Source: Planctomycetota bacterium
GTDB lineage: Bacteria; Planctomycetota; UBA8742; UBA2392
DNA length: 64,000 bases
NCBI GenBank assembly: GCA_025993795.1
Contig: JAMQHL010000033.1
Coordinates: 3,078 to 67,077, forward strand
Direction: 5' to 3'
In this document: positions 6,880 to 35,679 of the stretch, piece after piece
Position numbering within the stretch: position 1 is the stretch's first letter
Layout of the letters: every line of letters starts with the position of its first letter
Notes under the pieces: generated by a model
Seen by the model: the letters and a program-made list of their open reading frames with translations, nothing else
Told to the model about the DNA's origin: nothing
Databases searched by the model: none
Translations under genes and position numbers: made by a program

Positions 6880-7857
6880 CTACCCACGCACACGCCTTGC
6901 TATGCGAGGCGCAGCAAACAGTGCGGCTAGGGTGGCAAGGAGAACCAGAAACGAAGCCGACGTGCCGGATTCGTGAGTGCTACAGTCCGACCCGTTGTTA
7001 CCTGTTCTGCCGCCTGGCTTGGTCGAGTCATAGTAGAACTGTTGCGTCAGAGTTATCGGGCCGAGTAAAGACGTGGTAACCACAACGTCGTGATATCCAT
7101 CGTTGGGGCCAAGGTCTGGAATCACCCAGCCCGATGCGAACGTGTTTGCGCCGTTTACAGTGCCCGTGCCCAAGTCAATTCCACCAATTGAAAGCGAGAC
7201 CGGCGGTGTGAAACCAGAACCGTAAATCCGAAAGAATGTGTTGTGGTAGCTCGACGCGGGGTCAATCGACGACACAAAAAAGATCACAACAGAAAGTTGC
7301 GCTGAGTCGGGTGCCGGTGTGCCAAGACTGACTGTAGCGGGTGCCTGTACGTTTACGTCACCGATACCCGCGACACTCACTTGGTATGTGTCGGGAATGC
7401 TAGCACCGGCGCTAGCGAGGAAGTCGGCAACAACCCAAACATCCACGGAGGTAGCGTCTGGAACGGTCAACGTACTCGTGAAGTTGACCGTGATCGTCGG
7501 CGATGCGCCACCGGTTGACCCCAGATTCGTATCCAGCGCCGAGTTGAAGCTGCCATCTCCGTCATCTTGCCAGACGCTGAGACCCGTACTCGGGTCGAGG
7601 TCGTTTACGAAGTCACCCGTGCCGCCAACTGTCAACGTGATGCCGTTAATCTGGACCGCTCCACCCGACGCCGAAAGAGTGAACGCCGCAAGTTCTTGTG
7701 TAAACGCCGTCCCGCCTTGGATACCCGAAGCCGCCGGCGAGTTTGTGGAAAGAGCTACAGTCACCTGCTGAGCCGCCAAAGAGCGGCCAACGGTCAGCAC
7801 TAGAAAGAGAATAGCCAGGCCTCTTAGCCAACGAGCGCTGGCCACGTTCACCAGCAT
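6880..7857 (-). CDS. Secreted surface protein, paralogue 3 of 3 (same architecture)
   Basis: The track ORF extends to 7980. I trimmed it to ATG 7857 ([31 protein letters not shown]), which gives a signal peptide aligned with paralogues 1 and 2; ATG 7872 is an alternative. Tail [37 protein letters not shown]. Confidence 0.8.
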
Positions 7858-8059
7858 GTGCCACTCAGCCATGAGCTTGAGGTCTTCTCGCGGCAATGTG
7901 CGATCAACGTCCTTCTTCGGGGCTGCAATCTTCACGTCGATGGCAGTTGTCGCGTCGTCGGGCATCGCTTGCCTGATCATACCATCGCTGTCCCCGCACT
8001 GTGACTACACAATGCGGGCGCGGTGTGTACGCTGCGCCCGCCTCTTGCGGAGCAACGCC

Positions 8060-10318
8060 ATGTCTGACGACGAGATCTACAAGGCTTCACTTGAATACCA
8101 TGCCAAGGGCCGCCCCGGCAAGATCGCCGTGGTACCCACCAAGCCCACACTCACCCAGCGCGACCTGTCGCTGGCTTACTCGCCGGGTGTCGCCGAGCCC
8201 TGCCGCGAAATCGCCCGCCAGCCCAACGACGCCTACCGCTACACCAGCAAGGGCAACCTCGTGGCCGTCATCAGCAACGGCACCGCCATTCTCGGCATCG
8301 GCAACCTTGGCGCGCTGGCCAGCAAGCCCGTCATGGAAGGCAAGGGCGTGCTGTTCAAGCGCTTTGCCGACATCGACGTGTTTGACATTGAGGTGGCGAC
8401 AGAAGATGTCGAGAAGTTCATTGAGACGGTAGCACTGCTTGAGCCCACGTTCGGCGGGATCAACCTTGAGGACATCAAGGCACCAGAATGCTTTGAAATC
8501 GAACGTCGCCTCAAAGAGCGCATGAACATCCCGGTGTTCCATGACGACCAGCACGGAACGGCCATCATCTCCGGCGCGGCGCTGGTGAACGCCATTGAGC
8601 TCACGGGCAAGAACATCGGCGACATTCGCATCGTCGTCAACGGCGCCGGCGCAAGCGGCATCGCGTGCACGAACTTCGCCATCCAGCTAGGCGTAAAGCC
8701 GCAAAACGTGATCATGTGTGACACCAAGGGCGTCATCCACAGCGGCCGCACAGACCTGAACCCGGTGAAGCAGCCGTTTGCCCTGAAGACAGACGCGCGC
8801 ACGCTTGACGATGCGCTCAAGGGCGCGGACGTGTTCTACGGCCTCAGCAGCAAGGGCGCCTTGAAGCCCGAGGCGCTGAAGACGATGGCAAAGGACCCCA
8901 TCGTGTTCGCGATGGCCAACCCCGACCCCGAGATTGAGTACGACGTTGCGCGCGCCGCCCGCGACGACGTGATCATGGCAACCGGCCGCAGCGACTACCC
9001 CAACCAGGTCAACAACGTGCTGGGCTTCCCGTTCATCTTTCGGGGTGCACTGGATTGCCGTGCGACCGCCATCAACGAAGAAATGAAGATCGCCGCCAGC
9101 AAGGCGCTGGCCCGCCTGGCCAAAGCCGAGGTTCCCGACAGCGTCAGCCGCGCGTATGGCGGCAAGCGCTTCAAGTTCGGGCGCGACTACCTGATTCCGA
9201 CGCCGTTTGATCCGCGTGTGCTGTACTACGTTGCACCCGCAGTAGCACAGGCCGCGATGGACACGGGCGTCGCGCGCGTCAAGCTTGATATCAACGAGTA
9301 CCGCGAACGCCTGCGGCTCAAGACTGAGCCGGGCCGCGCTGTGATGAGCGTTGCGATTCACAAAGCCCAGGAAATGCGCAAGCGCCTGGCGCTGCCAGAC
9401 GGCGAAGACGCGCGCGTGCTTTCAGTCGCGCGCCAGATCATACGCGATGGCGTGGCCAAGCCGGTGCTGGTCGGCAACGCGGGCCGGATTACCGCCGCAA
9501 TGAAGGGTTTTGACAGCGCGCAGTTCGAGGTGGCGGATCCGGCATCGCCCCCCAGCCACCCGCTGTTGCAACAGCGGTTCAAAGAGCGCGCCGGCATGTT
9601 CAGTGACGATGGCCAGATGGACAGTTACGCTCTGGCGGCCCTGATGACAGACCTGCAGCTTGTAGACGGCATGCTGAGCGCTGCCGACCGGATTTACCGT
9701 GAAACCGTGCCCAGCGTGCTGCGCTTCGTCAGCAAGCGCAGCGGCACCAAACGCGTGATCGGCATGCACATCATGGTGTTGCCGAACCGCGTGCTGTTCT
9801 TTGCAGACACGACCCTGAATGTGAGCCCCGACGCGGAAGTGCTGGCTGACAGCGCGCGGTTGTGCTCTGAGGCTGTGCTGGCGCTGGGAATCACGCCGCG
9901 CGTTGCATTTATCAGCTACAACAACTTCGGCGCGGCAGCTCACCCGGAAGCGGAGAAAGTCCGCGTGGCCTATGAACTGTTCACGCAGAAGAGCCCGGGT
10001 ATTGCGGCGATTGGCGAAGTGCAGGCCGACGTCGCCGTCGGCCCCGATGAATTCCGGAACATCCTTGAAGCTGAACGCTGGCGCGAACCAGCCAACGTGC
10101 TGATTTTCCCGAACCTCGACGCTGCCAACGCGGCCTTCCGCCTTGTGCGCACAACCGCCGACGCGACGGCGCTGGGCCCGCTGCTGCTGGGCCTGCGCCG
10201 GCCGGCCAACGTGATGCCCAAAGGCAGCAGCGTGCAGGATGCTGTGTCCATGGCGGCCGTGACGCTGGCAATGCCGGTGCTTGCGACAGGCAGCGGGATG
10301 TACCCCGCCGTGAAGTAA
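8060..10318 (+). CDS. maeB: NADP-dependent malic enzyme with C-terminal phosphotransacetylase-like domain
   Basis: Trimmed from track start 7856 to ATG 8060 ([24 protein letters not shown]...), giving 752 aa. Has the SPGVAEPC and [11 protein letters not shown] motifs and a PTA-like C-terminal half. Confidence 0.9.
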
Positions 10319-10348
10319 GCCGGCCCACGTCAACACAGGAAAACACAA

Positions 10349-10378
10349 CGGGCGCCACTTTCGTGGCGCCCGGTTGTT
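10349..10378. terminator. GC hairpin between convergent maeB and the TauE-like gene (possible bidirectional terminator)
   Basis: CGGGCGCCAC-TTTC-GTGGCGCCCG, a perfect 10-bp stem, followed by GTTGTTCGGG. The T-tract is weak. Confidence 0.45.
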
Positions 10379-10425
10379 CGGGTCGAAGAAATGTCTGCCC
10401 CCCCATAACAGCAAACACTTCCCTT

Positions 10426-11370
10426 TTACCGACCCTCAATTTGGTCTGCGGGGGGTGAGGTATAAACATTTTCCCCAGACGTCGCATCAGAAATTTTCAG
10501 AGTTTCGCCGGGCATTGCGGACCTGCGCTTTCGCATCAGGCGCAACGTTGCCGCAAGGATGAGAAGTGCAAAGACCGTCTTCAAAACATCCTGCGGCACG
10601 AGGTAGGCCAGCTGTACCCCAGCAACGGCTGCCACCGCCGCAAATGGCGTAACTCTCAGCGTCAGCGGCTTGTCCACGTTTCCGTCTCGCCAGTGCAACG
10701 CAGCGCCCAGCACACTGGTCGGCAGGATCATCACAAGGCTGGTGGCCCGGGTCGCCGTGAACGCATCGTGAAAGTAGGTGAACCCAAGCGTGAGCATCGG
10801 CACAGCCACCACACCGCCGCCGAGTCCGAACAGTGAAGCGACTATTCCCGCAAACAGCCCGACACTGATCAAGAAGATGACGTGACCGGGGTGACTCACC
10901 AACAGGGTCTCGCCAACGAACGGCGCAGTTTCCGGCAGCACTCCCAGAAGGCGCGCAGCAATCACGATCAGCACGACACAGAACGCGTAGCGAAACAGCA
11001 TTTCCGGCAGCACCCTGTGAAGCCATTTGCCGATGAACGACCCTGCCAGCGCACCCGCGATCAACAGCCCCGCGGCGGCCCAGTGGATGTCCCCTGGTTC
11101 GTGCAGCAACTGCGCGATCAGGCCGATCGTGATGACCACCGAGATCACGGCGAGGCTGGTACCCGCCGCGCGCTTTACGCGCATGATCCCGAACAGCGCA
11201 AACAGCGGGACCATGACGACGCCGCCGCCCACGCCGAGCATGGTGCTGACCAATCCCGCCAGGGCGCCCACCGCAGATGCCTTGAGCGTGCGGGTTCTGG
11301 ATTCTTTAGGTGTGAGGCTCACAAGCTGAGAAAAGCAACGTGTGCCGACGGATGCAACCCTCGACACCAT
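10426..11370 (-). CDS. TSUP/TauE-SafE family anion exporter (membrane protein)
   Basis: 314 aa, polytopic. Repeated G.GGG motifs (MLGVGGGVVMVPLF and LFGLGGGVVAVPML) typical of TauE/SafE. The start codon is uncertain; no clear SD, and only 24 bp downstream of the previous gene. Confidence 0.75.
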   Translation of the reverse strand: MVSRVASVGTRCFSQLVSLTPKESRTRTLKASAVGALAGLVSTMLGVGGGVVMVPLFALFGIMRVKRAAGTSLAVISVVITIGLIAQLLHEPGDIHWAAAGLLIAGALAGSFIGKWLHRVLPEMLFRYAFCVVLIVIAARLLGVLPETAPFVGETLLVSHPGHVIFLISVGLFAGIVASLFGLGGGVVAVPMLTLGFTYFHDAFTATRATSLVMILPTSVLGAALHWRDGNVDKPLTLRVTPFAAVAAVAGVQLAYLVPQDVLKTVFALLILAATLRLMRKRRSAMPGETLKISDATSGENVYTSPPADQIEGR

Positions 11371-11393
11371 GCGTAAGCCGTGTCGGCTTCAGG

Positions 11394-12854
11394 CTAATCC
11401 ACCGGCTCAGGTTCACCCTCGGTTGGCGGAGCTTCCTGCTGGCCGTCCTGTGTCCATGTAATGTCGGCGGCGTGGCCTTCTCCGCCCGGCTCGCCATCGC
11501 TGCCCAGGCACGTCAGCGTGTAGCCGGCATCGGTAAGTTCGTAACGGAATGCGTGGTCCCACGGATCGTTCGGGACTTCTCCGCCGGCCAGCTTGTCTTT
11601 GATGTCATCCAGCGACTCAGGAAATTTACCGGTATCGTCTCTGTAGACCTTCAGCTTCTCGGCGATGTCGCGCATCTGCTCGGTGGCGATTTCTGCCAGT
11701 CCCTCGTCGTTCTTATTCTCGTTGATCGGCGCAACTTTCACGATTCCGCGCCGACCCCGTCCGATCCGTCCCTCAGTCGATGAGCCGGGCAGCGGCGCAA
11801 TATGGTCGGCATCTTCCTTCATGCCGCCCGCCTGCCCGTCTTTGCCCAGCGCCACAATCGCGAAGTTCTCATCATCCAGGCGCAGATAAATGTATTCGCG
11901 ACCCCAATCATCAGAAGGGATGTTGTTGCGCAGCGCGTTGGCCTGCTTGCCATCCTTCAGCGGGATCGGTCGGGTCAGGTCCATCAGCTCATCGGGAAGT
12001 TTGCCAACCTGCTGGCGCCAGGTCTGTACCTCTTCGGCCAGGTTCTGCACCTGCCAGTCCATGTTGCGCTCAAAGCCGCCGCCCCACTCGTCTGTGTCGC
12101 GCGTCTGGCGCCGTATGTCGCGTTCTGAGATGACAAAGTCAACGTCACGGCCGGTGCCGCCTTCCACTCCGTCGGCACCCCAGCACACAATCGCAATGTT
12201 GTCCTGGGGCAGAATCCGTATGGCATACTCGTTGCCCCAAGGGTCGGTGAAACAGGCGTTGACGGCTTTGTCTTCGGCTTCTGTGCCAGTCCGCTTCGCG
12301 GATTCCAGTTTGGCGGGCCAACTGCCCTTCTCGCGCCTGTGCTGCACTACCTCAATGCCGACTGCGACCATGCGCGCGCGCGCCAGCGTAACCCGGGCCT
12401 CGTGGCGTGCGGCGTCGCGTTGCTTGTCCAGCTCGGCCTGCTGGTTGGCATTCAGTTCAACCTTCTCGCCATTGCGCGTGAAAGTGATGTCTGCGGCGCC
12501 GCCCTCTCCGCCCTGCTTGGCATCGGCCCCGAGGCTGACCAGCTTGTAGCCCGCTTCTTCGTCCAGGCTGTAACTGAACTCGTTGCCCCATGCGTCCTTA
12601 GGCACAGCATCGCGCAGGTTTGCATCTACAAGCTTCTGCAGTTTCTCAGGATACTTGTTCTCATTCGTGCCCGACCACGCGCGAAGGTCCTGGGCAAGGC
12701 TGCGCATTGTTTCGCGCGTTTCGCGCATCTTGGTGCGGTCGGTGCGGCTGATACGATCCTGCGCGGTTGCGGAAATCGCAATCCCGAACACCAGCACGCA
12801 GCAAAGCAGCAGGCGATACAGCATGGGAAGCTCCAGACCGTTCATACTACGCAA
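11394..12854 (-). CDS. Secreted protein with four tandem type II secretion GspG-like (pseudopilin head) domains
   Basis: 486 aa. N-terminus MLYRLLLCCVLVFGIAISATAQD is a signal/anchor, not a prepilin G-F-T-L-x-E leader. Four repeats, each with a helix followed by a (D)(P/A/D)WG..(Y/F).Y ... G.DG..GG...D(I/V) pattern: KDAWGNEFSY..LGADAKQGGEGGAADI; DPWGNEYAI..WGADGVEGGTGRDVDF; DDWGREYIY..LGKDGQAGGMKEDADHI; DPWDHAFRY..LGSDGEPGGEGHAADI. Confidence 0.8.
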   Translation of the reverse strand: MRSMNGLELPMLYRLLLCCVLVFGIAISATAQDRISRTDRTKMRETRETMRSLAQDLRAWSGTNENKYPEKLQKLVDANLRDAVPKDAWGNEFSYSLDEEAGYKLVSLGADAKQGGEGGAADITFTRNGEKVELNANQQAELDKQRDAARHEARVTLARARMVAVGIEVVQHRREKGSWPAKLESAKRTGTEAEDKAVNACFTDPWGNEYAIRILPQDNIAIVCWGADGVEGGTGRDVDFVISERDIRRQTRDTDEWGGGFERNMDWQVQNLAEEVQTWRQQVGKLPDELMDLTRPIPLKDGKQANALRNNIPSDDWGREYIYLRLDDENFAIVALGKDGQAGGMKEDADHIAPLPGSSTEGRIGRGRRGIVKVAPINENKNDEGLAEIATEQMRDIAEKLKVYRDDTGKFPESLDDIKDKLAGGEVPNDPWDHAFRYELTDAGYTLTCLGSDGEPGGEGHAADITWTQDGQQEAPPTEGEPEPVD

Positions 12855-12942
12855 CCGGCGCGTGCCGACAAGCCGCCCCCTTGACGCTTGGGGCGGGTTT
12901 AATACGGTTTGCGGGCCTTCCGGTGCCTATGGGAAGCACAAT

Positions 12943-13017
12943 TCCGCTGTAGCTCAATGGTAGAGCATTCGACTGTTAATCGACAGGTTGCTGGTTCGAG
13001 TCCAGCCAGCGGAGCCA
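12943..13017 (+). tRNA. tRNA-Asn (anticodon GTT)
   Basis: Hand-folded cloverleaf. Acceptor TCCGCTG/CAGCGGA, D arm GCTC-AATGGTA-GAGC, anticodon arm TTCGA-CTGTTAA-TCGAC, T arm GCTGG-TTCGAGT-CCAGC, discriminator G plus encoded CCA. Confidence 0.9.
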
Positions 13018-13025
13018 GAATCGAC

Positions 13026-13057
13026 AGCGCCCTGTGTAAGCAGGGCGCTTTGTTTTT
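13026..13057 (+). terminator. Rho-independent terminator after tRNA-Asn
   Basis: AGCGCCCTG-TGTAAG-CAGGGCGCT hairpin followed by TTTGTTTTT. Confidence 0.8.
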
Positions 13058-13066
13058 GCCGCCGGC

Positions 13067-13097
13067 GGTTGCTGGTTCTCGTCCAGCAGGCGGAGCC
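13067..13097 (+). repeat. Degenerate direct copy of the 3' portion of tRNA-Asn (T arm plus acceptor 3' strand)
   Basis: GGTTGCTGGTTCTCGTCCAGCAGGCGGAGCC matches tRNA positions 12986-13016 (GGTTGCTGGTTCGAGTCCAGCCAGCGGAGCC) at 27 of 31 positions, counted by hand. It lies 50 nt downstream of the tRNA. Confidence 0.6.
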
Positions 13098-13138
13098 GGC
13101 ATTCAACGGCGCCTCGCCATTTTCGGGGCGCTTGCCTG

Positions 13139-14281
13139 TCAGTCGCGGCGCAGGACGCTCACAAGGCAGCGCAAGCTGCCGAAGTAACCGTAGCACGCCG
13201 TACAATCGACGGGCTTGACCTCAAAGCCAGCCTGCCTCCAGACATCGGCGGCTGCGCGGTTCAGCACATCGGCCCCGGCGAACTGCGGCATGTACACCAC
13301 CCGCCGGCCGTCGCGGTCGTCGAGAATGCTGTTCAGGTACGTCAGGTAGGTGCGGCCGTCGCCGCCCGGCGCGATCGGAATGCGGATCACGTCATAGCCT
13401 GCCGCCCGGCACTGTTCGGCCACGGCGTCGAACTTTGCCGCCGTCTCTTCACTGAAATCAGCGCCGCCCTTCAGTGGAAGCGCACTCACCTGCTCTGGTG
13501 TCAGCAGAGTACGCGCCAGGCGCGGGTCACCGACCAGTACGCGGCGCTTGCCAAGGGTCATCATGTACATGCCGGCATGGTGGTCCGGTGCGTTCTTCAT
13601 GAGCACAACTTCAAGCCCCAGCAGGACCCCAAGGCGCTGCTGCAATTCCTGTTCGGTCTCGACGGTGCGTTGCAGGTTTCGCATCCGCACATTCGGCGTA
13701 ACGAAGGCCGTTTCGTTGTCCACGACAAAGTCGCCGCCATCGAAGTACAGTTCGCTGCGCACCGCAGCAACCTCGGGGGCCAGCGCTGCTGCCAGGCTCT
13801 CGCCTACGCTCTCGTCGCCCCTTCGGGCCGGCCAGCCATCGGCGCCGAGTTCGCCCTGTGGCGAAAGCAGTGTCACGGCGCGAGAGTCACCGGCTGGTCG
13901 AAGCGCCAGCCAGCGGTCCCGTGCCCAGGAGGTTATCTCGTGCTGGACAAGGACGGGGTGAAGTGTGCAGCCCGTGCTGCCAACGCGCCGCGCAAGATCA
14001 TCAAATGCAGCACGGTCACGAACCACAACGTGGACCGTGACCGAAGCGGGCAACTGGCGCAGAAAATCGGCAAAGGCAACGGCAACGATGTCAGCCGAGT
14101 CGGGGGTGTACTGGATGACAAGCTCACGGATCGCCCCGTCGCAATCGCTTTGGGTAGAGCCGACCGTAGACTTCGGCCGGCCCTCACCACCAAGCAATGG
14201 CATCAACAGCACTGCCGCGATCAATCCCAGGACGATGCCGACCGGCCACTTCCAGTTTGCCGCCTTGCCCGGCGCGTCCAT
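13139..14281 (-). CDS. Membrane-anchored guanidino-group-modifying enzyme superfamily protein (agmatine/peptidyl-arginine deiminase or amidinotransferase-like fold)
   Basis: Trimmed to ATG 14281 (MDAPGKAANWKWPVGIVLGLIAAVLLMPLLGG, an N-terminal TM anchor), which avoids overlap with the upstream gene. Family-like motifs: SWARDRW, YFDGGDFVVDNETAFVT, and C-terminal GYFGSLRCLVSVLRRD, which resembles the catalytic-Cys motif G.(H/R)C. Confidence 0.6.
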   Translation of the reverse strand: MDAPGKAANWKWPVGIVLGLIAAVLLMPLLGGEGRPKSTVGSTQSDCDGAIRELVIQYTPDSADIVAVAFADFLRQLPASVTVHVVVRDRAAFDDLARRVGSTGCTLHPVLVQHEITSWARDRWLALRPAGDSRAVTLLSPQGELGADGWPARRGDESVGESLAAALAPEVAAVRSELYFDGGDFVVDNETAFVTPNVRMRNLQRTVETEQELQQRLGVLLGLEVVLMKNAPDHHAGMYMMTLGKRRVLVGDPRLARTLLTPEQVSALPLKGGADFSEETAAKFDAVAEQCRAAGYDVIRIPIAPGGDGRTYLTYLNSILDDRDGRRVVYMPQFAGADVLNRAAADVWRQAGFEVKPVDCTACYGYFGSLRCLVSVLRRD

Positions 14282-14303
14282 GTTGGTTCTCCGTGCGACA
14301 ACT

Positions 14304-14828
14304 TCAGTTCTCGATGCTGATGGGCTTTTCCACCACGTCGCCGTTACCACCATCTTTGTTACCACCCAGGTGGAAGGAAATCGCCTGGCTGTCGGACACC
14401 TTGGTGTCGGTCTCGATCGTCAAGGTCTTGCTCTCGCCGGCGGCAAGAGTGACGGTGCGGCTGTCTTTCCACAACACCCGTGCCATGGCCGGCATGCGCG
14501 AACGGCTTTCAAGATCGCGGCCGGACATCGACACGTTGATGCCCTTGTCGATCGACTTGTCGGTGTTGTTGGTGATCACGATGGTCAGGATCGGCTTTTC
14601 GCCGGATGCATACGACTCTTTGTCGGTCTTGATGGTGATGGTACAGCCGTCTTCCTTCAGCGTAGGAACGGCGATTTCCGGCGTGACCTTGCGCAGCGTC
14701 TCGGTCGTCTTGGCACCTTCGCCGTCAGCGGCGTCGGCGTACTGTGGCGCGAGTACGGCCAGGCCCGCGACCATGGTCAGCGCTGCGATTGCCAGCATGC
14801 TCAGCGTGTTCTTGCCCAGGTTTCTCAT
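14304..14828 (-). CDS. Small secreted beta-sandwich protein (CARDB/BsuPI-like pattern), hypothetical
   Basis: Trimmed to ATG 14828, which is preceded by AAGGAGCACC. Signal peptide MRNLGKNTLSMLAIAALTMVAGLAVLAPQYADA. Alternating beta pattern CTITIKTDKESYASGEKPILTIVITNNTDKSI...TVTLAAGESKTLTIE. Confidence 0.65.
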   Translation of the reverse strand: MRNLGKNTLSMLAIAALTMVAGLAVLAPQYADAADGEGAKTTETLRKVTPEIAVPTLKEDGCTITIKTDKESYASGEKPILTIVITNNTDKSIDKGINVSMSGRDLESRSRMPAMARVLWKDSRTVTLAAGESKTLTIETDTKVSDSQAISFHLGGNKDGGNGDVVEKPISIEN

Positions 14829-15695: not shown

Positions 15696-16364
15696 TCAGC
15701 CCTCAAGGGCGCGTGGGAAAAGGATGTTGTTCTCGAGGTGGATGTGCTGGTGGAGGTCTTTCTCCATGGCGGCGAGCCCGTGCCACAGTGCCCGCCAGGT
15801 GTTGCAAGCTTCTTCCGGTACTTCGTACTGGTTTGTCAGCAGGCGCAGGCGGCGCAGAGCCTCGCCCACTTCTTCATGCTCGCGGTTCATGACGTTGATT
15901 GGCCCGCCGGCATCTTTGCCCTGGCCCGCCTTGATCATCGGAAACAGGATCTCTTCTTCTTTGTGCATGTGCTGGTCGAGATCCGCCTTCACCTCTGCGA
16001 AAACCTCGACGATGCCGCTCAGCATCTCAGGCCGTTTGTCACCATGAACTGCCAGCACCTTGCGGGCCATCGCGTCGAGGCGATCAAGCTCTTCCCACAG
16101 CGGCACGTGGTAGACCTCGAGGATGTGGTCGATCAGCTTATCGACCGGTGCTTCGTCCCAGCGGGTCGTGTCGCCGGGCTCTTTGAGTTCCTTCTCGAGC
16201 TCGGCCACGATGGTGTCAGCGTCCAGACCCATCTCGTCGCAGACCTCGCTGAGTGGGCGTCCACCCCCACAGCAGTAGTCAATTCCGTGGCGCGCAAACA
16301 CACGTGTCGACAGCGGCTGTTCAGTTGCGAGTTGCCCCACCAGTACATCGGTCGTGATTGCCAT
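15696..16364 (-). CDS. ytfE: Iron-sulfur cluster repair di-iron protein (RIC; YtfE/ScdA family)
   Basis: 222 aa. N-terminal ScdA motif FARHGIDYCCGG and hemerythrin-like His/Glu motifs (HMHKEEEILFP, HIHLENNILFP). AGGAG SD upstream. Confidence 0.9.
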   Translation of the reverse strand: MAITTDVLVGQLATEQPLSTRVFARHGIDYCCGGGRPLSEVCDEMGLDADTIVAELEKELKEPGDTTRWDEAPVDKLIDHILEVYHVPLWEELDRLDAMARKVLAVHGDKRPEMLSGIVEVFAEVKADLDQHMHKEEEILFPMIKAGQGKDAGGPINVMNREHEEVGEALRRLRLLTNQYEVPEEACNTWRALWHGLAAMEKDLHQHIHLENNILFPRALEG

Positions 16365-16393
16365 GTCCGTCTCCTTCGATATTCATGCAGAGT

Positions 16394-17014
16394 TTATCTG
16401 CGTCCTTGCCCGGTTTGGATTGGCGCCAACATCTTCAGCAGCGCCTTAAGAATTCGGTCAGAGTTCGGTTGCCGGCTGTCGTTGGTCGCACGGTGCACGC
16501 CCGGCATGCCGATCAGCGCATGAATCGTGCCCATGATCGGAACCAGCAGCACCTCAGGCTCGATGTCGCCGCGAAAGTCGCCCAGCACAACGCCGTCTTC
16601 AATCGTCTGCAACAGAAAGCGCTTGGCGCGTTTCACGCATTGCCGCAAATGGCACACGGCACCGGAAGGCAGCGTTAGATACGCCTGTTCAGACCGCAGC
16701 AGCCAGGCAAGCCCCGCATCAGAGCCAATCACGCGAATTCGGTTGCGTGCGAACTCTAGCATGCGCTCAACCGGCGGCAGCGACGCATCCGGAAACGTTT
16801 CGTCCAGGCACTCAAGCGCGTACTGAACAGCCTGCTCTAGGATCGCATCAATGCTTGCGAAATGACGAAACAACGCGCCGGTCGAAACGCCAACTTCCCG
16901 CGCCAGATTGCTTGTGGTCAGCGAAGTCAGGCCCTGCGAGCCTATCAGGCGCAGTGCGGCCGACACGATTTCGCCGCGGCGTTCAGCACTGGGTTTGCGC
17001 GTCAGAGCAGCCAT
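16394..17014 (-). CDS. TetR family transcriptional regulator, upstream of and co-oriented with the RIC gene
   Basis: 206 aa. HTH region LTSLTTSNLAREVGVSTGALFRHFASIDAIL. 30-bp gap to the RIC start. Confidence 0.85.
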   Translation of the reverse strand: MAALTRKPSAERRGEIVSAALRLIGSQGLTSLTTSNLAREVGVSTGALFRHFASIDAILEQAVQYALECLDETFPDASLPPVERMLEFARNRIRVIGSDAGLAWLLRSEQAYLTLPSGAVCHLRQCVKRAKRFLLQTIEDGVVLGDFRGDIEPEVLLVPIMGTIHALIGMPGVHRATNDSRQPNSDRILKALLKMLAPIQTGQGRR

Positions 17015-18911: not shown

Positions 18912-19727
18912 ATGGAATACTCGGCTGAAAAGGAGTTTGCGTTCGATTGGATGCGGGAGGTAGCAGAGGTCCTGCGTCCTTACATCGCGGACACCCGGCG
19001 CCGCACCGACTCAACGCGTTCGAAAGCAGCCGACGACGTGGTCACTACCGCCGACCTTGCCGTCAGTGAACTGCTGATTCGCCGCATCTCGGCGCTGTTC
19101 CCGCGCGACGCGATCTGCAGCGAAGAGGGCTCTGCGCACGATGACCCCGCGCGTCGGCGCCGCTGGATTATCGACCCGATCGACGGCACGCGAAGTTTCA
19201 TTGCAGGCGTGCCCGGCTACAGCGTCATGCTTGCACTGGCCGTAGAAGGCACGCCGGTCTTTGCCGTCGTGTACGACCCCGTGAAAGATGAGACGTGGTG
19301 GGCTGCCGAAGGCCAGGGCGTATGGCGCGGTGAACAGCGCGTGCTGCGCCACAGTCGCCCACCCCGCTTGATCTGGAGCCCCTTTGCACCCCGCGAAGCG
19401 GGCGAAGCAGTAGCGCGCGGCCTGGGTGTCGACGGCATCGTTATGGCCGAAAGCTTTGGGGTGCGCGCAGCCATCATGGCAAAGGACGGCGGCGGGGTGT
19501 GCGCGTCGCGCCCCGGCGGACCGCACATCTGGGACACAGCCGCGGGCTGGGTGATCGTGCGCGAAATCGGCGGCAGGGTTACCGGCTACGACGGCTCGCC
19601 CGTTGAGTACCCGCATGCACCGACGCTTCACCCAAGCGGATTTGTGGCGACACTGGGCGTCGACCACAACAAGGCGAGCGAATTGATGCGCGAGTACCTG
19701 CCGGGCCTGGAATCAGGACCGGCCTGA
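18912..19727 (+). CDS. Inositol monophosphatase / CysQ family phosphatase
   Basis: 271 aa with the IDPIDGT and WDTAAG family motifs. Confidence 0.85.
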   Translation: MEYSAEKEFAFDWMREVAEVLRPYIADTRRRTDSTRSKAADDVVTTADLAVSELLIRRISALFPRDAICSEEGSAHDDPARRRRWIIDPIDGTRSFIAGVPGYSVMLALAVEGTPVFAVVYDPVKDETWWAAEGQGVWRGEQRVLRHSRPPRLIWSPFAPREAGEAVARGLGVDGIVMAESFGVRAAIMAKDGGGVCASRPGGPHIWDTAAGWVIVREIGGRVTGYDGSPVEYPHAPTLHPSGFVATLGVDHNKASELMREYLPGLESGPA

Positions 19728-19818
19728 GCACTTCCGCCTGTCGCTGACCGCCGACGGCATCCGTGTATGTGCGCGGTTGCTTGACCCGTTCTTCCTATGC
19801 TCTGCCGTGCAGCGCGCT

Positions 19819-21897
19819 ATGGTCGATACCGTGGAACTGCTGAACCTGACCAACCCCAGTCTCTACATCAACCGGGAGCTGTCGCTGCTGGATTTCAACC
19901 GCCGCGTGCTGGCCCAGGCCGGCGACGCAGGTGTCCCGTTGCTTGAGCGCATGCGCTTTCTCTCGATCTCGTGTAACAACATGGACGAGTTTTTTGAGAT
20001 CCGCGCCAGCGGCATCAAGCAGCAGACCGAGGCTGGTGTCTCGACGGCGGGCCCCGACGGCATGACGCCGCGCGAGCTGCTGGCGGCGATCAGCACCACC
20101 GCCCGGTCGCTGGTCGCTGAGCAATACCGGCTGTTCAACGACGTGCTGCTGCCCGAGCTGGCAGCCACGCGCATTCGCATTCTGCGCCGCACGGACTGGA
20201 CCGCCGAACAGGCGGCCTGGGTGCGCGAATATTTCTTGCGAGAGGTCTATCCCCTGTTGACACCGATCGGGCTCGACCCTGCGCACCCGTTTCCGAACGT
20301 CCTGAACAAGATTCTCAATTTCTTCGTGGTGCTGGAGGGCAAGGACGCGTTTGACCGCAACAGCGGTACCGCGGTGGTGCAGGCCCCGCGCCTTGTGCCC
20401 AGGCTGATCCGGATGCCGTCGGACGTATCGGGGGGCATGCACGACTTCGTGCTGCTGTCGGCGGTGATGCACGCCAACATCGGCGACCTGTTTGCGGGTA
20501 TGGAGGTCAAGGGCTGCTACCAGTTCCGCGTCACGCGAAACAGCGACCTTTGGGTGGATGAAGAAGAAGTTGAAGACCTGCTGGATGCCGTTCGTTTTGA
20601 GCTGCCGCGACGGCACTACGGCGCGGCAGTGCGCCTTGAGGTCGCGGAGAGCTGCCCGCCTGACGTCGCGCGCTTCCTGCTGGACCACTTTCACCTGCGC
20701 GAGGAAGACCTTTACCAGTTCAACGGCCCGGTGAACCTGAACAGGCTGATGGCCCTGTACGACCTCACGGACCGGCCCGAGCTCAAATACCCGGTGCACA
20801 AGGCCGGCATCGCTCGCGAACTGCAACCGGGCGGGGAGCTGCTGGAAGTGCTGCGGGCACGCGACGTGTTACTGCATCACCCGTACCAGTCATTTGGCCC
20901 GGTGCTTGAGTTCGTCCGCGCCGCCGCCAAGGACCCGGCGGTGGTCGCGATCAAGAGCACGCTGTACCGCACCGGTGCCCACAGCGAGATCGTCGATGCC
21001 CTGTATGACGCTGCGCGCGCCGGCAAGGAAGTCACAGCCGTCGTCGAGCTTCGGGCGCGTTTTGACGAAGCCGCAAACGTCGACCTTGCCACGCGCCTGC
21101 AGACTGCCGGCGCCCATGTGGTGTACGGCGTCGTGGGTTACAAGACCCATGCCAAGATGCTGCTGGTAGTGCGGCGCGAAGAGGGCGGACTGCGCCGATA
21201 CGCGCACCTGGGCACGGGCAACTACCACACGGGCACGGCGCGGACGTACACCGACCTCGGGCTCCTGACTAGCAACGAACAGATCTGCGACGACATCAAC
21301 CAGCTGTTTCGTGAACTGACCAGCCTGGGAGTCGCCCCGAAGCTTCAACGGCTGTTCTATTCGCCGTTCACGCTGAACGACGAGTTACTGGCACGAATCA
21401 ACGAACAGGCAGAACTTGCGCGGCTGGGCAAGCCCGCCATGATTCGCGCCAAGATGAATGCGCTGTCCGACCCTGGCATCATCAAGGCGCTGTATCTGGC
21501 ATCGCTCGCGGGCGTCCGGATTCAACTGCTGGTGCGCGGCGTGTGCTGCCTGCGCCCGGGGATTGCCGGCGTCTCTGACAGCATTGTCGTGCGCTCGATT
21601 ATCGGACGCTTTCTTGAGCATTCGCGCGTCTACAGTTTTGGTCCGGAAGGCGACATCACCTACGCCTCCAGTGCCGACTGGATGCAGCGCAACCTGTTCC
21701 GGCGTGTTGAAACCTGCTTTCCCATCCTCGACCCCGACCTGCGCGCCCGGGTGGTCGAAGAGTGCCTTGACATCCCCCTCAGGGACAACGTACAGGCATG
21801 GCAGCTCCAGCCGGATGGAACGTGGGTACGCTGCACTCCGGGCAATGACCCGCCCCTGGTCAGCCAGGAGATTCTTGCAGCACGGCTGGGTGGTTAA
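19819..21897 (+). CDS. ppk: Polyphosphate kinase 1
   Basis: Track ORF starts at TTG 19777; I prefer ATG 19819 (MVDTVELLNLTNPSLYINRELSLLDFNRRVLAQA, a typical PPK1 N-terminus). Full-length four-domain PPK1 pattern including the YKTHAKMLLVVRRE region that carries the phospho-His. Confidence 0.9.
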   Translation: MVDTVELLNLTNPSLYINRELSLLDFNRRVLAQAGDAGVPLLERMRFLSISCNNMDEFFEIRASGIKQQTEAGVSTAGPDGMTPRELLAAISTTARSLVAEQYRLFNDVLLPELAATRIRILRRTDWTAEQAAWVREYFLREVYPLLTPIGLDPAHPFPNVLNKILNFFVVLEGKDAFDRNSGTAVVQAPRLVPRLIRMPSDVSGGMHDFVLLSAVMHANIGDLFAGMEVKGCYQFRVTRNSDLWVDEEEVEDLLDAVRFELPRRHYGAAVRLEVAESCPPDVARFLLDHFHLREEDLYQFNGPVNLNRLMALYDLTDRPELKYPVHKAGIARELQPGGELLEVLRARDVLLHHPYQSFGPVLEFVRAAAKDPAVVAIKSTLYRTGAHSEIVDALYDAARAGKEVTAVVELRARFDEAANVDLATRLQTAGAHVVYGVVGYKTHAKMLLVVRREEGGLRRYAHLGTGNYHTGTARTYTDLGLLTSNEQICDDINQLFRELTSLGVAPKLQRLFYSPFTLNDELLARINEQAELARLGKPAMIRAKMNALSDPGIIKALYLASLAGVRIQLLVRGVCCLRPGIAGVSDSIVVRSIIGRFLEHSRVYSFGPEGDITYASSADWMQRNLFRRVETCFPILDPDLRARVVEECLDIPLRDNVQAWQLQPDGTWVRCTPGNDPPLVSQEILAARLGG

Positions 21898-21905
21898 GAG
21901 GCTGC

Positions 21906-23435
21906 GTGCGACTGGCATCGATCGATATCGGCTCGAACTCGGTTCACATGATCATTGCGGACGTTACCGGCCCGCAGTCGTTCTTTGTCGTTGATCGTGA
22001 GCGTGAGCGGGTCAAGCTGGGCGCAGGCGCGTTCAAGACCGGCAAGCTGCGGGCCGCGCCGATGCAGGCCGCACTGGATGCGCTCAAGCGGTTCGCGCTG
22101 CTGTGCAAACGCCTGGGCGTGCAGCGGATTCACGCCGTGGCAACAAGCGCCGTTCGCGAAGCACGCAACGGGCGCACATTTCTTGCCGAGGTCAAGCGGC
22201 GCACCGGCATCGTTGCGAAACCAATCGGCGGCAAGGACGAAGCCGGCTTGATCTATCGCGGCATCCGCCACGCCACTGACCTGCGGGGCCGGCGCGCGCT
22301 GATGCTGGACCTTGGCGGCGGCAGCCTTGAGATCATGTACGGCAACGACCAGCGACTTGCAATTGCCGAGAGTCTGCCGCTGGGCGTGCAGCGCCTTCGC
22401 GACAATTTTGGTGGCCAGGACCCGCTGCCGCGCCGCGCGCGCGAACGCCTGGTCAAGCATATCCGCCAGACAGCCAAGCCGGTGCTTGAACGCATCCGCA
22501 AGCGCGGCATTGGTGCCGTGATCTGCACCTCGGGCACGCAGATGACGCTGGGGCTGGCGTGCCTGCGCCTTCGCGGCCGTGACCCTTGGGGGTCGCTGAA
22601 CGGCTACGTGATCCAGACCAGTGAACTGCGTGACCTGCACCGCCAGTTGATCGACACCGATGCGCCGGGGCGTTCGCGCCTGCCGGGAATTGACGAACGC
22701 CGCTCGGACATCGTGCACTACGGTTCGGCGGTGCTCGCGACGGTGCTTGAGATTGTCGGGGCCGGCGAGTTCCAGCTTTGTGGCGCGAGCCTGCGCGAGG
22801 GCCTGCTGCTGCAGCGTATGGAAGAGACGGGCGCACGGCGCGACGCACAGTCAGTACGGGTTTCCGCCGCCACGGAGCTTGTGCAGCGCACCGGCGGTGA
22901 ACCGCGCCGGGCACGGCGGGTCGCTGACCTTTCGCTCAGGCTGTTCGATGGCGCCCGGCGCGCGCACAAGCTGGCAAAACGCGAACGCGGGCTGCTCGAG
23001 ATCGCGGCGCTGGTGGCCGACCTGGGCCGGCATCTTTACCACGAAGACCGCGAGCACCTTACCTACCAGATTGTGCGTGGCGGTGGGCTGCGAGGTTTGA
23101 CCGACACCGAGCTTGAGACTGTCGGGCTGACTGCACGCTATTCCCGCGGCGGCGCGCCCAAGGCCAGGCACCGCCACTTCGCAGAGCTGGACACCGATTC
23201 GCAGCACATTGTGCGTGTGCTGGCGGGCATCCTGCGCATTGCCGACGGGCTTGACCGGGGCCGCGCCGGCGTGGTCAAGGACATTCGCTGCCGCCTCACG
23301 CGAGACACGCTGCGAATCTCACCCGTCGTCCGCGGCGACGCCAGCCTGGAATTGTGGTCTGCAACCAGGGCCGCCAAGCTGTTTGCCCAGGCGGTAGACC
23401 TCGAGGTCCTGATCCACGGCACCAAGCCGCGCTGA
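21906..23435 (+). CDS. ppx: Exopolyphosphatase (Ppx/GppA family) with C-terminal HD-type domain
   Basis: 509 aa. N-terminal ASIDIGSNSVHMIIADV motif. GTG start 8 nt after the ppk stop. Confidence 0.9.
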   Translation: MRLASIDIGSNSVHMIIADVTGPQSFFVVDRERERVKLGAGAFKTGKLRAAPMQAALDALKRFALLCKRLGVQRIHAVATSAVREARNGRTFLAEVKRRTGIVAKPIGGKDEAGLIYRGIRHATDLRGRRALMLDLGGGSLEIMYGNDQRLAIAESLPLGVQRLRDNFGGQDPLPRRARERLVKHIRQTAKPVLERIRKRGIGAVICTSGTQMTLGLACLRLRGRDPWGSLNGYVIQTSELRDLHRQLIDTDAPGRSRLPGIDERRSDIVHYGSAVLATVLEIVGAGEFQLCGASLREGLLLQRMEETGARRDAQSVRVSAATELVQRTGGEPRRARRVADLSLRLFDGARRAHKLAKRERGLLEIAALVADLGRHLYHEDREHLTYQIVRGGGLRGLTDTELETVGLTARYSRGGAPKARHRHFAELDTDSQHIVRVLAGILRIADGLDRGRAGVVKDIRCRLTRDTLRISPVVRGDASLELWSATRAAKLFAQAVDLEVLIHGTKPR

Positions 23436-26986: not shown

Positions 26987-27284
26987 GGCGTGCTCCGTGT
27001 GCGGCAGACGTCGGATTGTGGTTTGCCGCGACGCCAGGAACAGGAAAAAGGCACTAATTCCGGCAACTCAAGACCACAATCGGCAATGATTTAGACACTT
27101 CTGAGCGTTAAGGGCATGGGGCGGCAGAGTGTATGCGGCCCGGCAAGGGTGTCCAGAATCACCCGAAAATGACCAATCCAGGCAGTTTTCCAGAATTGCC
27201 TGACATACAGGAACGAACATGTATAAGAGCGCAAGTGACAACCTGAACGTAGTTTACGCGCCGGATGCCAGCGCCGAAGAGCCC

Positions 27285-28292
27285 ATGACCAAGCACGCAC
27301 CAAGATCCAGCGATGAATTCGAGTACATCCGGTGGCTTCGCAGTGAGTTGCCGCCCTCGGGCCCAAACCTTGAGGTAGGCCCCGGCGACGATTGCGCCAT
27401 TCTGCGCGTCAGCAACGACAAGCTGGCCCTGAAGATCGACAGCGTCATTGAGGGCAAGCATTTCGTCCTTTACGACAAGGGCGTGCGCCGCCCGCCGGTG
27501 CTGGGACCCGCTTCGACGCCCGAGGAAGTCGGCCGCAAGGCCATCACGCGCTGCCTTTCTGACTTGGCTGCGATGGGTGCCACGCCGGTTTCGTGCATGG
27601 TTGCGGTTACGCTGCACACGGGTGCCCCCGTCAAGCTGCGCCAAGACCTGTTTCTTGGCATCAGCAAGACCTGTGCAACTTACGGTTTGTCCCTGGCCGG
27701 CGGCGACACCCAAAGCTGGGACGGCCCGCTGAGTATCACCGTCAGCATGATCGGGTCGATGAACGGCGTGCGCCCCGCCTTGCGCGCAGGGGCAGCACCC
27801 GGCGACGTGATCGCGATTACCGGCAGCCTTGGCGGCAGCATTCTGGGCAAGCACCTGCGCTTTGAGCCGCGCATTGCCGAGGGCCGCTTCCTGGCCGAGC
27901 GCGGCGTAAGCGCCATGATTGACATTTCTGACGGGGTGAGCGGCGACATCACGCGCATCTGCGAAGAAAGCGGTCTGCGGTTCAAAGTTGGCGCCGACAT
28001 TGCCGCAGAAGCTGTGCCCGTTAGCAAGTCGGCCCGGCGCCTCGCGAAACTTGAGAACCAGGGCGCCGAGCGCGCCATGCATCATGCCCTTCATGACGGC
28101 GAAGACTTTGAGTTGCTGTTCATCGTCAAGCCGAACCGCTGGAAGGCGATCATCAAGGAGTGGCCGTTCGATGTGCCGATCCGCGCACTCGGGATGATGC
28201 GCGCCTTGAAGAAAGACGAGCCGCTGGTGCGGATTCTTCGGAAGGGCGAACCGGAAGCTCTCGAAGTCCTGAGCTGGGTGCACCAGCTCTAA
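27285..28292 (+). CDS. thiL: Thiamine-monophosphate kinase
   Basis: EFEYIRWLR...VGPGDDCAIL N-terminal motif and AIR-synthase-like fold pattern. Start is either ATG 27285 (335 aa) or ATG 27219. Confidence 0.85.
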   Translation: MTKHAPRSSDEFEYIRWLRSELPPSGPNLEVGPGDDCAILRVSNDKLALKIDSVIEGKHFVLYDKGVRRPPVLGPASTPEEVGRKAITRCLSDLAAMGATPVSCMVAVTLHTGAPVKLRQDLFLGISKTCATYGLSLAGGDTQSWDGPLSITVSMIGSMNGVRPALRAGAAPGDVIAITGSLGGSILGKHLRFEPRIAEGRFLAERGVSAMIDISDGVSGDITRICEESGLRFKVGADIAAEAVPVSKSARRLAKLENQGAERAMHHALHDGEDFELLFIVKPNRWKAIIKEWPFDVPIRALGMMRALKKDEPLVRILRKGEPEALEVLSWVHQL

Positions 28293-29013: not shown

Positions 29014-30954
29014 CTACTTCAACGTACGCACGCCGTTTGCGTTCTTGGTTACACCTTTGAGGTCAAGCCACTCGAGCAGCGGAATCAGGTACTTGCGCGA
29101 CGTGGGCAGAATTTCTTTGAAGTCCTTCGCCGCCGCCTGCTTGCCGTCTTTCAGGAATTTCACGGTTTCAGCTGTCGCAAACTCAAGCGCCTTGGCGCCG
29201 AACAGAACGCCGCTGGGCAGCACTTCGGCCCGGCCGCTGCCTACCAGGTAATCGACGGCATTCTGGGTTGACTGCTGGTTTGTGCCCGCAGCCTGCGCAA
29301 GCTCCTTCAGCGTAGGCGGGTTGAGCATTGCCTGCTCAAGTTGCGCCGAGACGCGTTCTACAACTTTGCGGTCTTCATCGTTCAGCTTGCCGCCTTCGCC
29401 TGGCAGACCCAGCAGGTCGCCACGCTGGTCTATGGTGCCGGCTTCCACTGCTTTCAGCAGAATCGGCGCAAACGTGCGCGCGTCTACGCCCAGCTGCTGC
29501 TGCACGCTGGCGGCTTTGAGGCCCACCTGCGCCGGGTGCTGCGCGTGGAATGCCCGCAGAATCTCTACCAGCCGCACCCGCGCGCGCATCCACGCGTCCT
29601 TGTGAATCAGCGCGCGTCCAGGGCCGAACTCGGTGGCGACGCCTTTCTCCAGCAACTGGTCCACCAATGGCCCAAGGGCACTCGCAGAAAGTTCCGTGCG
29701 CGCCGCGAGCCCGTCCCGGGTAAGGCCCATTGGCCCTGCCTCAAGGACCGCGGCCTCCGCACGCTGCACGGGGTCATCGGCGGCAGCGGCCCAGTGCTGC
29801 AGCGACGCCAGCAAGTCGGGCTCATTGCGTCGCAGGATCTCGGCTTCGCGCTTGATCACACGACCGCCACCCAGCGTAATCGGCGGCGATGGTAAACGAA
29901 TGATGAAGTGATCGCCGATGCCCGCGACTACCGGGTCTTCCAGCAGCACTTCGCAGATGCAGCTTTCGCCGGGATTCAGCAACGCCCGATCAATGAAGTG
30001 GACGTGCCCGACAAGCTCGCTGGTGCCCACATGAAACTTGACCTCGGCACGGTGCTTCAAGGGCCGCGGCGAACTGGCCAGCAGCGAAAGGCTCAGCGAA
30101 AAGAATCGTGAATGCTCAAACACCCCCGGCGCGCACAGGGTGTGGCCGCGCTGCACCAGGGTATGGTCGATGCCCGCGAGGTTGAAGGCGCTGGAGTGCC
30201 CGGCGCGGGCCTCATCAATCGCGCTGTGGTAGGCCTGCATCGCGCGCACTTTTGCCTTCTGTTCGCCCGGCAGCACGACGAGGTTGTCGCCGATCCTGAC
30301 GCGGCCCGTCACCGGAATGCCGGTCAGCACCGCGCCGTGGCCCTTGGCTGAGAACACGCGCTGCACGGGCATGCGAAAGACACCGGCAACGTCGCGCGTG
30401 GGCGTGGCCTCGATCAACTCGCCGAGTCTTGCCCAGAGTTGATCGATTCCCTGGCCGGTAAGCGCGCTGACGGAAACGACCGGAGCACCTTCGAGAAACG
30501 TCCCGCGCAGCAGGTCGCGGACGTCTTCCGTCGCCAGCTCAATCGTGTCGGCATCTACCTTGTCAATCTTATTCAGCACGATCATGCCGCGCTTCACACC
30601 CAGCAACGTCAAGATCTCAAGATGCTCACGTGTCTGTGGCATCACGCCGTCATCTGCGGCAACGACCAGCATCACGATGTCGATGCCGGTAGCGCCCGCG
30701 ACCATGTTCTTCACAAAGCGCTCGTGGCCGGGCACGTCGATGATGCCCACACGAAAGCGCTCCTGGTACACGAAGTTCGCGAACCCAAGATCGATCGTGA
30801 TGCCCTTGTCCTTTTCTTCCTGCCAGCGGTCAGGGTCGATGCCCGTCAGCGTCTTGACCAGCGTGGACTTGCCGTGGTCGATGTGCCCGGCCGTGCCGAT
30901 TACTACATTCCGGATCTCGGCAGCCTGTGCGGTCATGCCCGAATGATCGGACAT
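29014..30954 (-). CDS. selB: Selenocysteine-specific translation elongation factor SelB
   Basis: GTPase motifs [21 protein letters not shown] and NKID, followed by a long C-terminal extension consistent with winged-helix SECIS-binding domains. ATG 30954 is preferred over the TTG at 30963. Confidence 0.85.
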
Positions 30955-31154
30955 CGGCGGCAATTGGGCAAGTGGGGTCGGAGCGTTTCAGCTGCGGACT
31001 TCCAGCCCCGGAGGCCCAAGTCTAAATGCCCGGATTGCCGAACCGGGCAGCAATTCACCGCCACCTGCAATCCGCAATGTAACTTCCGCTACCCGCCACA
31101 GCCATCCGTGCGACACCCTTCCAGCAGGCGCGCCTCTTCTTTACACTTCTGCCT

Positions 31155-35436: not shown

Positions 35437-35679
35437 CTACCCGTAAATGTACTGCATGGTTTCGGGCAGTCTTTTCACGGCCCAGCCGTTCCAGACAGCC
35501 CTGCACGCGCATTGGTAGTACGTGAAGGTGTCGTCGCCGGGGCAGGGCTGCACAAGGTCCATGTTGCCGGTCGCACGCGCGATGCGCATAACGCCGGTCA
35601 CGCCATCTGCGGGACTGAACGAGTACTGAACGAATTGCTCGTCCTCGCTGGATTTCCAGATGTAGATATAGACTGCCAT
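35437..35679 (-). CDS. Small cytoplasmic protein (80 aa), hypothetical, translationally coupled to the upstream decarboxylase gene
   Basis: MAVYIYIWKSSEDEQFVQYSFSPADGVTGVMRIARATGNMDLVQPCPGDDTFTYYQCACRAVWNGWAVKRLPETMQYIYG. Its ATG shares one nucleotide with the upstream TGA stop (CTGATGG). Third codon positions are strongly G/C-biased (hand check). Confidence 0.6.
   Translation of the reverse strand: MAVYIYIWKSSEDEQFVQYSFSPADGVTGVMRIARATGNMDLVQPCPGDDTFTYYQCACRAVWNGWAVKRLPETMQYIYG

Follow-up and report, generated by a model that had tools for sequence, protein, structure and literature searches.

A 64,000-nt stretch of the genome of a Planctomycetota bacterium (GenBank assembly GCA_025993795.1, contig JAMQHL010000033.1, positions 3,078 to 67,077 of the forward strand; hereafter the window) was found to carry, on its reverse strand, a gene for a protein made of four tandem head domains of the type of GspG, the major pseudopilin of type II secretion systems (T2SS). 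Pseudopilins and type IV pilins are seen as filament subunits and are defined by a class III signal and a polymerising helix; the protein described here has very probably lost both, its leaderless four-head architecture being unable to polymerise. What is new is the setting of a known domain: a leaderless tandem architecture that is conserved, as is its partner, a TauE/SafE (TSUP family) permease encoded directly downstream. Whether the two are functionally linked is put at about an even chance, and the explanation favoured here as a whole, that of an exported, non-polymerising four-head protein acting as a partner of TauE, falls slightly short of that; the choice of any one specific role for the protein is doubtful.

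In a Pfam scan, PF08334 (T2SSG) matched the whole open reading frame (ORF) in four stretches (E=8.9e-43). The ORF was also scanned as four separate quarters, each of which alone exceeded the PF08334 gathering score of 21 bits (Table 1; residue numbers are those of the 486-aa ORF read from 12854 unless stated otherwise). A first-pass annotation, made from the sequence alone, had proposed four T2SSG repeats at residues 42-127, 153-243, 264-353 and 386-468: all four were recovered as significant matches, within a few residues of the Pfam bounds, and the conversion of residues to nucleotide positions was correct. On its further question, whether the units share the GspG fold and calcium site, an AlphaFold2 model based on a 35-sequence family alignment (mean predicted local distance difference test score, pLDDT, 85.9; predicted template modelling score, pTM, 0.62) comprises four helix-plus-beta-sheet units, the calcium loops being kept as judged by sequence. 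In the model a continuous 41-residue helix (H136-176) runs from head 1 into head 2, while low-confidence linkers occur at 255-261 and 365-379. A Foldseek comparison with the PDB returned, at a probability of at least 0.99, only the EpsG, GspG and XcpG major pseudopilins (TM score 0.5-0.7 relative to the target); its weaker tail held a few type IV pilins with much lower scores and no other credible match. The pTM is above that expected of four freely jointed domains of ~100 residues, a hint that the four heads may be held in a defined arrangement.

The head array follows a predicted Sec-type signal peptide rather than a prepilin leader. In each of the 34 homologues whose N-terminus is present, M(R) comes first, followed by 13-17 hydrophobic residues, a small-x-small site and then Q[DE]; in the window protein the site reads A-T-A, followed by Q-D. 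The prepilin motif G[FMLIVY][ST]xxE was absent from 35 of 35 family sequences, and the four-head protein had no match to Pfam N_methyl at E<=1. The alignment to TIGR01710, the NCBIfam GspG equivalog, covers profile positions 9-132. Signal peptide and head 1 are colinear with six true prepilin GspGs (RGFTLIE...; 31-36% identity), and in this alignment the hydrophobic core of the signal peptide lies opposite the pilin alpha1-N, with the leader, Gly-1, Phe+1 and Glu+5 missing. The segment evolves fast, its ratio of nonsynonymous to synonymous substitution rates (dN/dS) being 0.45-0.5 as compared with 0.08 for the whole gene, and in the family alignment its hydrophobic stretch is short, with Pro or Gly frequent within it. 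Because the site follows the -3/-1 rule, the hydrophobic region is short and often holds Pro or Gly, and the segment evolves quickly, signal peptidase I most likely cleaves off the signal peptide between A-T-A and Q. Judging from these alignments, what was once a class III signal with its polymerisation helix has, we infer, become a class I signal peptide of the ordinary kind. The lack of a prepilin leader was thus borne out, as was the wider structural picture given at first pass, of four GspG heads behind a Sec-type signal and without the capacity to polymerise.

PulG and OutG bind calcium in a C-terminal loop, through the side chains of two Asp, through a Ser/Thr and through backbone carbonyls (PMC13081927). 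Every head of the window protein has a loop of 16 residues of the form x-G-x-D-x3-G-G-x5-D-x, and that of head 1 (LGADAKQGGEGGAADI) aligns without a gap with the loop of Vibrio vulnificus EpsG (3gn9; LGADGQEGGEGAAADI), which has the same length. Since the 16-residue loop and both Asp are conserved in all heads (Table 1), the protein likely has four calcium sites, one per head. Head 2 also contains two cysteines, Cys201 (35 of 35 sequences) and Cys224 (34 of 35), whose conservation suggests a disulfide and an oxidising, exported location. The mature family proteins are acidic (isoelectric point (pI) 4.4-5.1, net charge -16 to -49), and the most acidic head is head 4 (pI ~4.1-4.3). About one quarter of the family ends, after a variable Pro/Glu-rich tail, in a basic-aromatic motif (RKFR, GRFR, REFK, or just FR/YR; for example P0008, P0009, P0012, P0013 and P0031, and L017, L032 and L033), which could be a sorting or docking signal; the window protein ends in ...EPEPVD, without the motif.

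Relatives with the same four-domain architecture were found. A word-indexed search returned 34 clusters of 458-514 aa and 38-89% identity, all source names given being Planctomycetes. An exhaustive profile search of 1.84 billion representatives yielded only 18 proteins below E=1e-30, of which ~12 are full-length and four (P0032 and P0040-P0042) cover heads 1-3 only (profile positions to ~350-377), head 4 being absent from these three-head relatives. The family is carried by 15 GTDB species genomes, all of them metagenome-assembled genomes (MAGs) of uncultured Planctomycetota, many from activated sludge, and a metagenome scan added 4 loci. Because the heads are only 23-30% identical to one another, as against 49-56% between orthologous head positions, their quadruplication is older than the family, on this comparison of sequences. 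All four domains are under purifying selection: the dN/dS of the four-head gene against two 89%-identical orthologues is 0.08-0.09, and head 1 is the most constrained domain (0.016-0.03).

The ORF that the first-pass annotation placed at 11394-12854 exists; its 486 aa hold for the ORF span but not for the coding sequence (CDS). An alignment of the upstream regions of 7 loci, whose proteins are just 50-89% identical, places the start at the ATG at 12824 (MLYRLLL...), giving a product of 476 aa in which Gln32 of the ORF numbering becomes Gln22. This ATG is taken as the true start because a conserved putative promoter covers the TTG and ATG upstream of it and a conserved GGAG precedes it. The two upstream codons, TTG at 12854 and ATG at 12845, lie inside the conserved -10/spacer region and were rejected as starts; the in-frame ATG (12845-12843) overlaps the putative -10 element that is invariant in the 7 loci and is therefore assigned to the promoter and not to the coding sequence. 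A generic scanner for the sigma-70 consensus called no promoter here, the -35/-10 pair matching 8 of 12 consensus positions. With the permease gene following and a terminator-like hairpin beyond it, the arrangement looks like a two-gene operon running from conserved promoter to terminator. A riboswitch was considered and rejected: an Rfam scan of 10200-13300 matched a tRNA-Asn alone, and the 5′ untranslated region, at ~13 nt, is too short. That tRNA-Asn (GTT), at 12943-13017(+), is divergent from the four-head gene and is followed by a terminator-like hairpin at 13026-13049(+). Together with an intergenic block, AAACCGTATTA ... GTCAAGGGGGCG (TTGAC on the + strand), it is conserved in six other loci (L001, L007, L008, L010, L011 and L020); the block may contain the tRNA promoter or a shared regulatory site.

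The permease, which had received only a passing mention at first pass, is the sole conserved partner of the four-head gene. That it is TauE-like and on the same strand was confirmed by PF01925; the gap, given then as 24 bp, is 23 nt (11371-11393) when the permease ORF is read from its first ATG (314 aa). For an identical protein gene callers predict 281 aa, and for close homologues 298 aa, so the start codon of TauE and hence the exact gap are uncertain. PF01925 matches the protein in two stretches, consistent with an internal repeat. Its best NCBIfam match is the TauE-like C-terminal domain of the magnetosome protein MamO, far below cut-off. TSUP permeases have been little characterised; their predicted role is the transport of sulfur-containing anions (PMC5840216).

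In 16 of the 20 distinct four-head loci TauE follows directly, 8-86 nt downstream according to gene calls, and at a further one, L006, it is parted from the four-head gene only by a mobile-element insertion, so that 17 of 20 loci are linked. The insertion (7502-10904, ~3.5 kb), seen in one MAG, carries P63C, IS1-like transposase and HNH genes. TauE is also immediately downstream of the three-head relatives P0042 and P0041 and of the gene upstream of P0214, in neighbourhoods that are otherwise unrelated. Because the pairing is kept in three-head relatives whose other neighbours differ, it argues for a functional association and not for inherited synteny. The partner permeases form a discrete clade: ~38 clusters share >=44% identity, beyond which identity falls to <=37%, and the one TauE examined from outside the clade had no multi-head neighbour.

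Several observations weigh against so close a partnership. The subclade of L017, L032 and L033 has a ChaN-like gene downstream in place of TauE, and one divergent member of the TauE clade (L034) has no multi-head gene, its upstream neighbours being a pair of extracytoplasmic function (ECF) sigma and anti-sigma factors. Adjacency of genes is no proof of shared function, and the linkage is strong, not absolute; much of the synteny around the pair (malic enzyme, Tricorn protease) mirrors kinship among these MAGs. A limited search of the TSUP literature found no periplasmic partner of these permeases. To our knowledge no such partner is known for the family, nor do we know of the GspG fold as a solute-binding fold. 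At L034 the upstream 470-aa gene was tried as a hidden member of the four-head family and rejected (hhalign probability 0.2%), resembling instead the anti-sigma factor beside the ECF sigma gene.

Table 1. Positions of the four-head gene, its domains and motifs, its putative expression signals and its neighbours (window coordinates, except for the ChaN-like genes, which are given by locus)
Feature	Position	Strand	Details
Putative -35 element TTGTCG	12866..12871	-	TTG invariant in 7 aligned loci
Putative -10 element TAGTAT	12844..12849	-	T-A-x-x-A-T invariant in 7 loci; 16 nt past the -35
Shine-Dalgarno GGAG	12831..12834	-	6 nt ahead of ATG; GG.G...CCATG block in 7/7 loci
Four-head CDS	11394..12824	-	476 aa + stop; ATG at 12824
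Sec-type signal peptide MLYRLLLCCVLVFGIAISATA	12762..12824	-	21 residues; predicted signal peptidase I site between A-T-A and Q
Head 1	12483..12749	-	aa 36-124; PF08334 46.1 bits
Calcium-loop motif, head 1 LGADAKQGGEGGAADI	12486..12533	-	first Asp 34/34, second 34/34
Head 2	12138..12404	-	aa 151-239; PF08334 29.2 bits
Calcium-loop motif, head 2 WGADGVEGGTGRDVDF	12135..12182	-	first Asp 30/35, second 35/35
Head 3	11805..12059	-	aa 266-350; PF08334 43.2 bits; secondary structure seen in AlphaFold2 model
Calcium-loop motif, head 3 LGKDGQAGGMKEDADH	11802..11849	-	first Asp 34/35, second 35/35
Head 4	11457..11714	-	aa 381-466; PF08334 51.3 bits
Calcium-loop motif, head 4 LGSDGEPGGEGHAADI	11460..11507	-	first Asp 33/34, second 34/34
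TauE/SafE (TSUP family) permease gene	10426..11370	-	PF01925 E=8.7e-49; 23 nt downstream of the four-head gene
Intrinsic terminator-like hairpin	10349..10372	-	10-bp stem with 9 G-C pairs, T-rich tail; 54 nt past the TauE stop
ChaN/Tiki-superfamily gene	L017 7420-9006; L032 1966-3534; L033 1674-2471		downstream of the four-head gene; 528 aa, PF04187 E=3e-53

The proposed course of events is as follows. The four-head gene would be co-transcribed with the TSUP permease gene from the conserved promoter, transcription ending at the terminator. The product would be exported by Sec and its 21-residue signal peptide cleaved, giving a soluble, acidic periplasmic protein of ~455 residues with four calcium-loop heads. 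Because this mature protein would lack a leader, an N-methylated Phe, Glu5 and the hydrophobic alpha1-N, it should be neither processed by prepilin peptidase nor polymerised into a pseudopilus. It may then act as an extracytoplasmic partner of the permease, for example in ligand capture and delivery, in gating or as a scaffold, and the two proteins may also be physically linked. As to origin, a GspG-like prepilin would have lost its leader while its alpha1-N turned into the hydrophobic core of a signal peptide that can be cleaved; quadruplication of the head would have taken place before the family radiated, yielding an exapted array of pseudopilin heads.

As regards the nature of the gene and its product, three other explanations were weighed. 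That the gene is a product of misassembly, or of the joining of four neighbouring genes, can be practically discounted. Two metagenomic fragments (P0045 and P0047) do carry frameshifted tails, Arg-rich and out of frame, that start inside the head 1 calcium loop, and these are probably frameshift errors of short-read assemblies at the G-rich stretch encoding GGxGG; in over 20 independent assemblies, contigs of 3-4 Mb included, the gene itself is unbroken (458-514 aa), the low identity among the repeats makes their collapse or expansion in assembly implausible, and purifying selection acts on all four domains. Several homologues bear the source name 'type II secretion system protein GspG', and the protein does match TIGR01710 above cut-off, in four stretches (122.5 bits against 88.85), yet that it is a true major pseudopilin, as the NCBI names would have it, is very improbable: the 122.5 bits are the sum of four domain matches, a class III signal, Glu5 and an N_methyl match are all lacking, and a 476-aa protein with four heads and no gsp genes nearby is no ordinary GspG. 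The name is a misannotation, which arises because the four domain scores together pass the equivalog cut-off. More plausible than these, though still unlikely, is an uncleaved signal anchor, that is, an N-in/C-out tether in the inner membrane that would display the four periplasmic heads beside TauE. By position the segment is the homologue of the alpha1-N that lies in the membrane in prepilins, and it runs to as many as ~17 apolar residues after a basic residue; against an anchor, the hydrophobic stretch is short, often includes Pro or Gly and is followed in nearly all members by a small-x-small motif, and its rapid divergence is as expected of a discarded signal peptide.

As regards function, the first-pass annotation had suggested a periplasmic decoy or scaffold for the T2SS or type IV pilus machinery, and the heads, as mimics of a stretch of pseudopilus, might indeed bind the secretin, platform components or substrates in a decoying, regulatory or scaffolding role. 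They are genuine GspG-type folds whose calcium loops are conserved, head 1 is 31-36% identical to true prepilins, and the predicted pTM suggests a defined arrangement of domains and not beads on a string. The proposal found no support in the gene neighbourhoods, however: GspC-M, GspD/E/F or Pil genes are absent from the 64-kb window, no T2SS or type IV pilus genes were present among the listed gene calls of the homologous neighbourhoods, and the conserved partner is a permease. Pilin filament contacts rest mostly on alpha1-N, which the mature four-head protein is predicted to lack, and a role of this kind is judged decidedly unlikely. A somewhat better prospect, albeit one that we would not favour, is a generic exported protein for binding, adhesion or calcium buffering, beside which TauE persists as inherited synteny of no functional meaning. 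It would fit the strongly acidic mature protein, the breaks of linkage in one subclade and one TauE lineage, and the occurrence of leaderless heads in many other architectures, of which the two with neighbourhoods examined are not beside TauE; it fits less well with a pairing that survives in three-head relatives with wholly different other neighbours, or with short intergenic gaps between a single promoter and terminator. A partnership with TauE is preferred, and within it a more specific version can be imagined, to which we attach little likelihood: the four linked heads may be a fixed extracytoplasmic subunit of the TSUP permease or, alternatively, a one-turn 'pseudopilus mimic'. Major pseudopili have about four subunits per turn, as in the symmetry of the PulG pilus, and such a mimic would show the surface of an assembled filament without the assembly machinery.

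Leaderless heads are not confined to the four-head family. Among the proteins retrieved by the profile search were many others in which 2-4 T2SSG-like stretches occur without a prepilin signal: proteins with a signal peptide, HEAT repeats and 2-4 heads (P0048, P0051, P0053, P0058 and P0103), lipoproteins with 1-3 heads (P0049, P0050, P0052, P0064 and P0088, of which P0049 and P0050 are without the calcium loop) and proteins of ~800 aa with two heads, one at each end (P0074). Like the four-head family these have a Sec or lipoprotein signal in place of the prepilin signal, and many keep the calcium-loop motif; they differ from it in architecture, and the two examined, a two-head lipoprotein and a HEAT-plus-heads protein, had neighbourhoods without TauE. 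The view that the window protein is unusual therefore stands for its conserved tandem array of four heads but not for leaderless multi-head T2SSG proteins as such. Literature searches on PF08334, on GspG-like domains and on tandem pseudopilins of the Planctomycetes turned up neither the four-head architecture nor the other leaderless types. Leaderless pseudopilin heads appear to be a reusable extracytoplasmic module, with the four-head family its most elaborate tandem form seen here.

These proteins point to a different evolutionary route for the pseudopilin fold, in which the hydrophobic helix has apparently turned into a cleavable signal peptide and the head has been multiplied as a soluble exported module, and their spread in metagenomes suggests that reuse of the head is wider than the four-head family alone. 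The poorly understood TSUP/TauE permeases gain a candidate periplasmic partner; were the subunit reading true, it would mean a secondary transporter of a previously unknown, binding-protein-assisted kind, made from the exapted head of a pseudopilin. In practical terms, the misannotation as GspG could inflate counts of T2SS in Planctomycetota genomes.

The remainder of the window holds genes of diverse function. Upstream of the four-head gene is a 408-aa ORF (13139-14365(-)) with no Pfam or NCBIfam match, whose orthologues are 65-87% identical and syntenic in that position; one of them has a weak match to PAD_porph (agmatine/peptidyl-arginine deiminase-like). Next to a TetR-family regulator lies a ScdA/RIC-type di-iron hemerythrin protein for iron-centre repair (15696-17014(-)). 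An inositol monophosphatase-family gene (18912-19727) precedes adjoining genes for polyphosphate kinase (ppk1) and exopolyphosphatase (ppx/gppA) at 19777-23435(+). A protein with an AIRS domain, possibly the selenophosphate synthetase SelD (27219-28292(+)), is encoded near the elongation factor SelB (29014-30963(-)), a proximity that suggests that this planctomycete makes selenoproteins; an ARAGORN scan of the window gave no tRNA-Sec. A cluster for polysaccharide biosynthesis and export (35679-45600) comprises an NAD-dependent epimerase/dehydratase, a Wza-like Poly_export protein, a GT4 glycosyltransferase, an MBOAT O-acyltransferase and several large ORFs without a Pfam match. Further genes encode a Tricorn-like protease, malic enzyme, a TPR protein, an aromatic amino acid lyase (probably HAL), an FHA protein, an integrase, GGT, a peroxidase (likely KatG), PFK, GAPDH, a peroxiredoxin and NDK.

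Three known systems offer a comparison. Soluble periplasmic binding proteins serve as partners of secondary transporters in the TRAP (DctP) and TTT (TctC) systems. The four-head protein resembles them as a predicted soluble periplasmic protein apparently co-transcribed with a secondary permease, an analogy of function only, since the folds are unrelated and the link of the four-head protein to its permease is one of gene adjacency. Like GspG, PulG, EpsG and XcpT, each of its units has an alpha1-C helix and a small beta-sheet, the DPWG loop and, C-terminally, a calcium loop that carries two Asp; unlike them it has no prepilin leader, Gly-1, Phe+1 or Glu5, and an A-x-A site follows its hydrophobic segment. 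A true GspG, moreover, has one head in ~130-150 aa and is encoded in a gsp cluster, whereas the four-head protein has 476 aa and is encoded beside a permease gene. Modular type IV pilins likewise reuse a pilin-type head in a larger multidomain protein; they keep the class III signal and alpha1-N and enter filaments, whereas the four-head protein has further heads as its added modules and appears to have lost the polymerisation helix.

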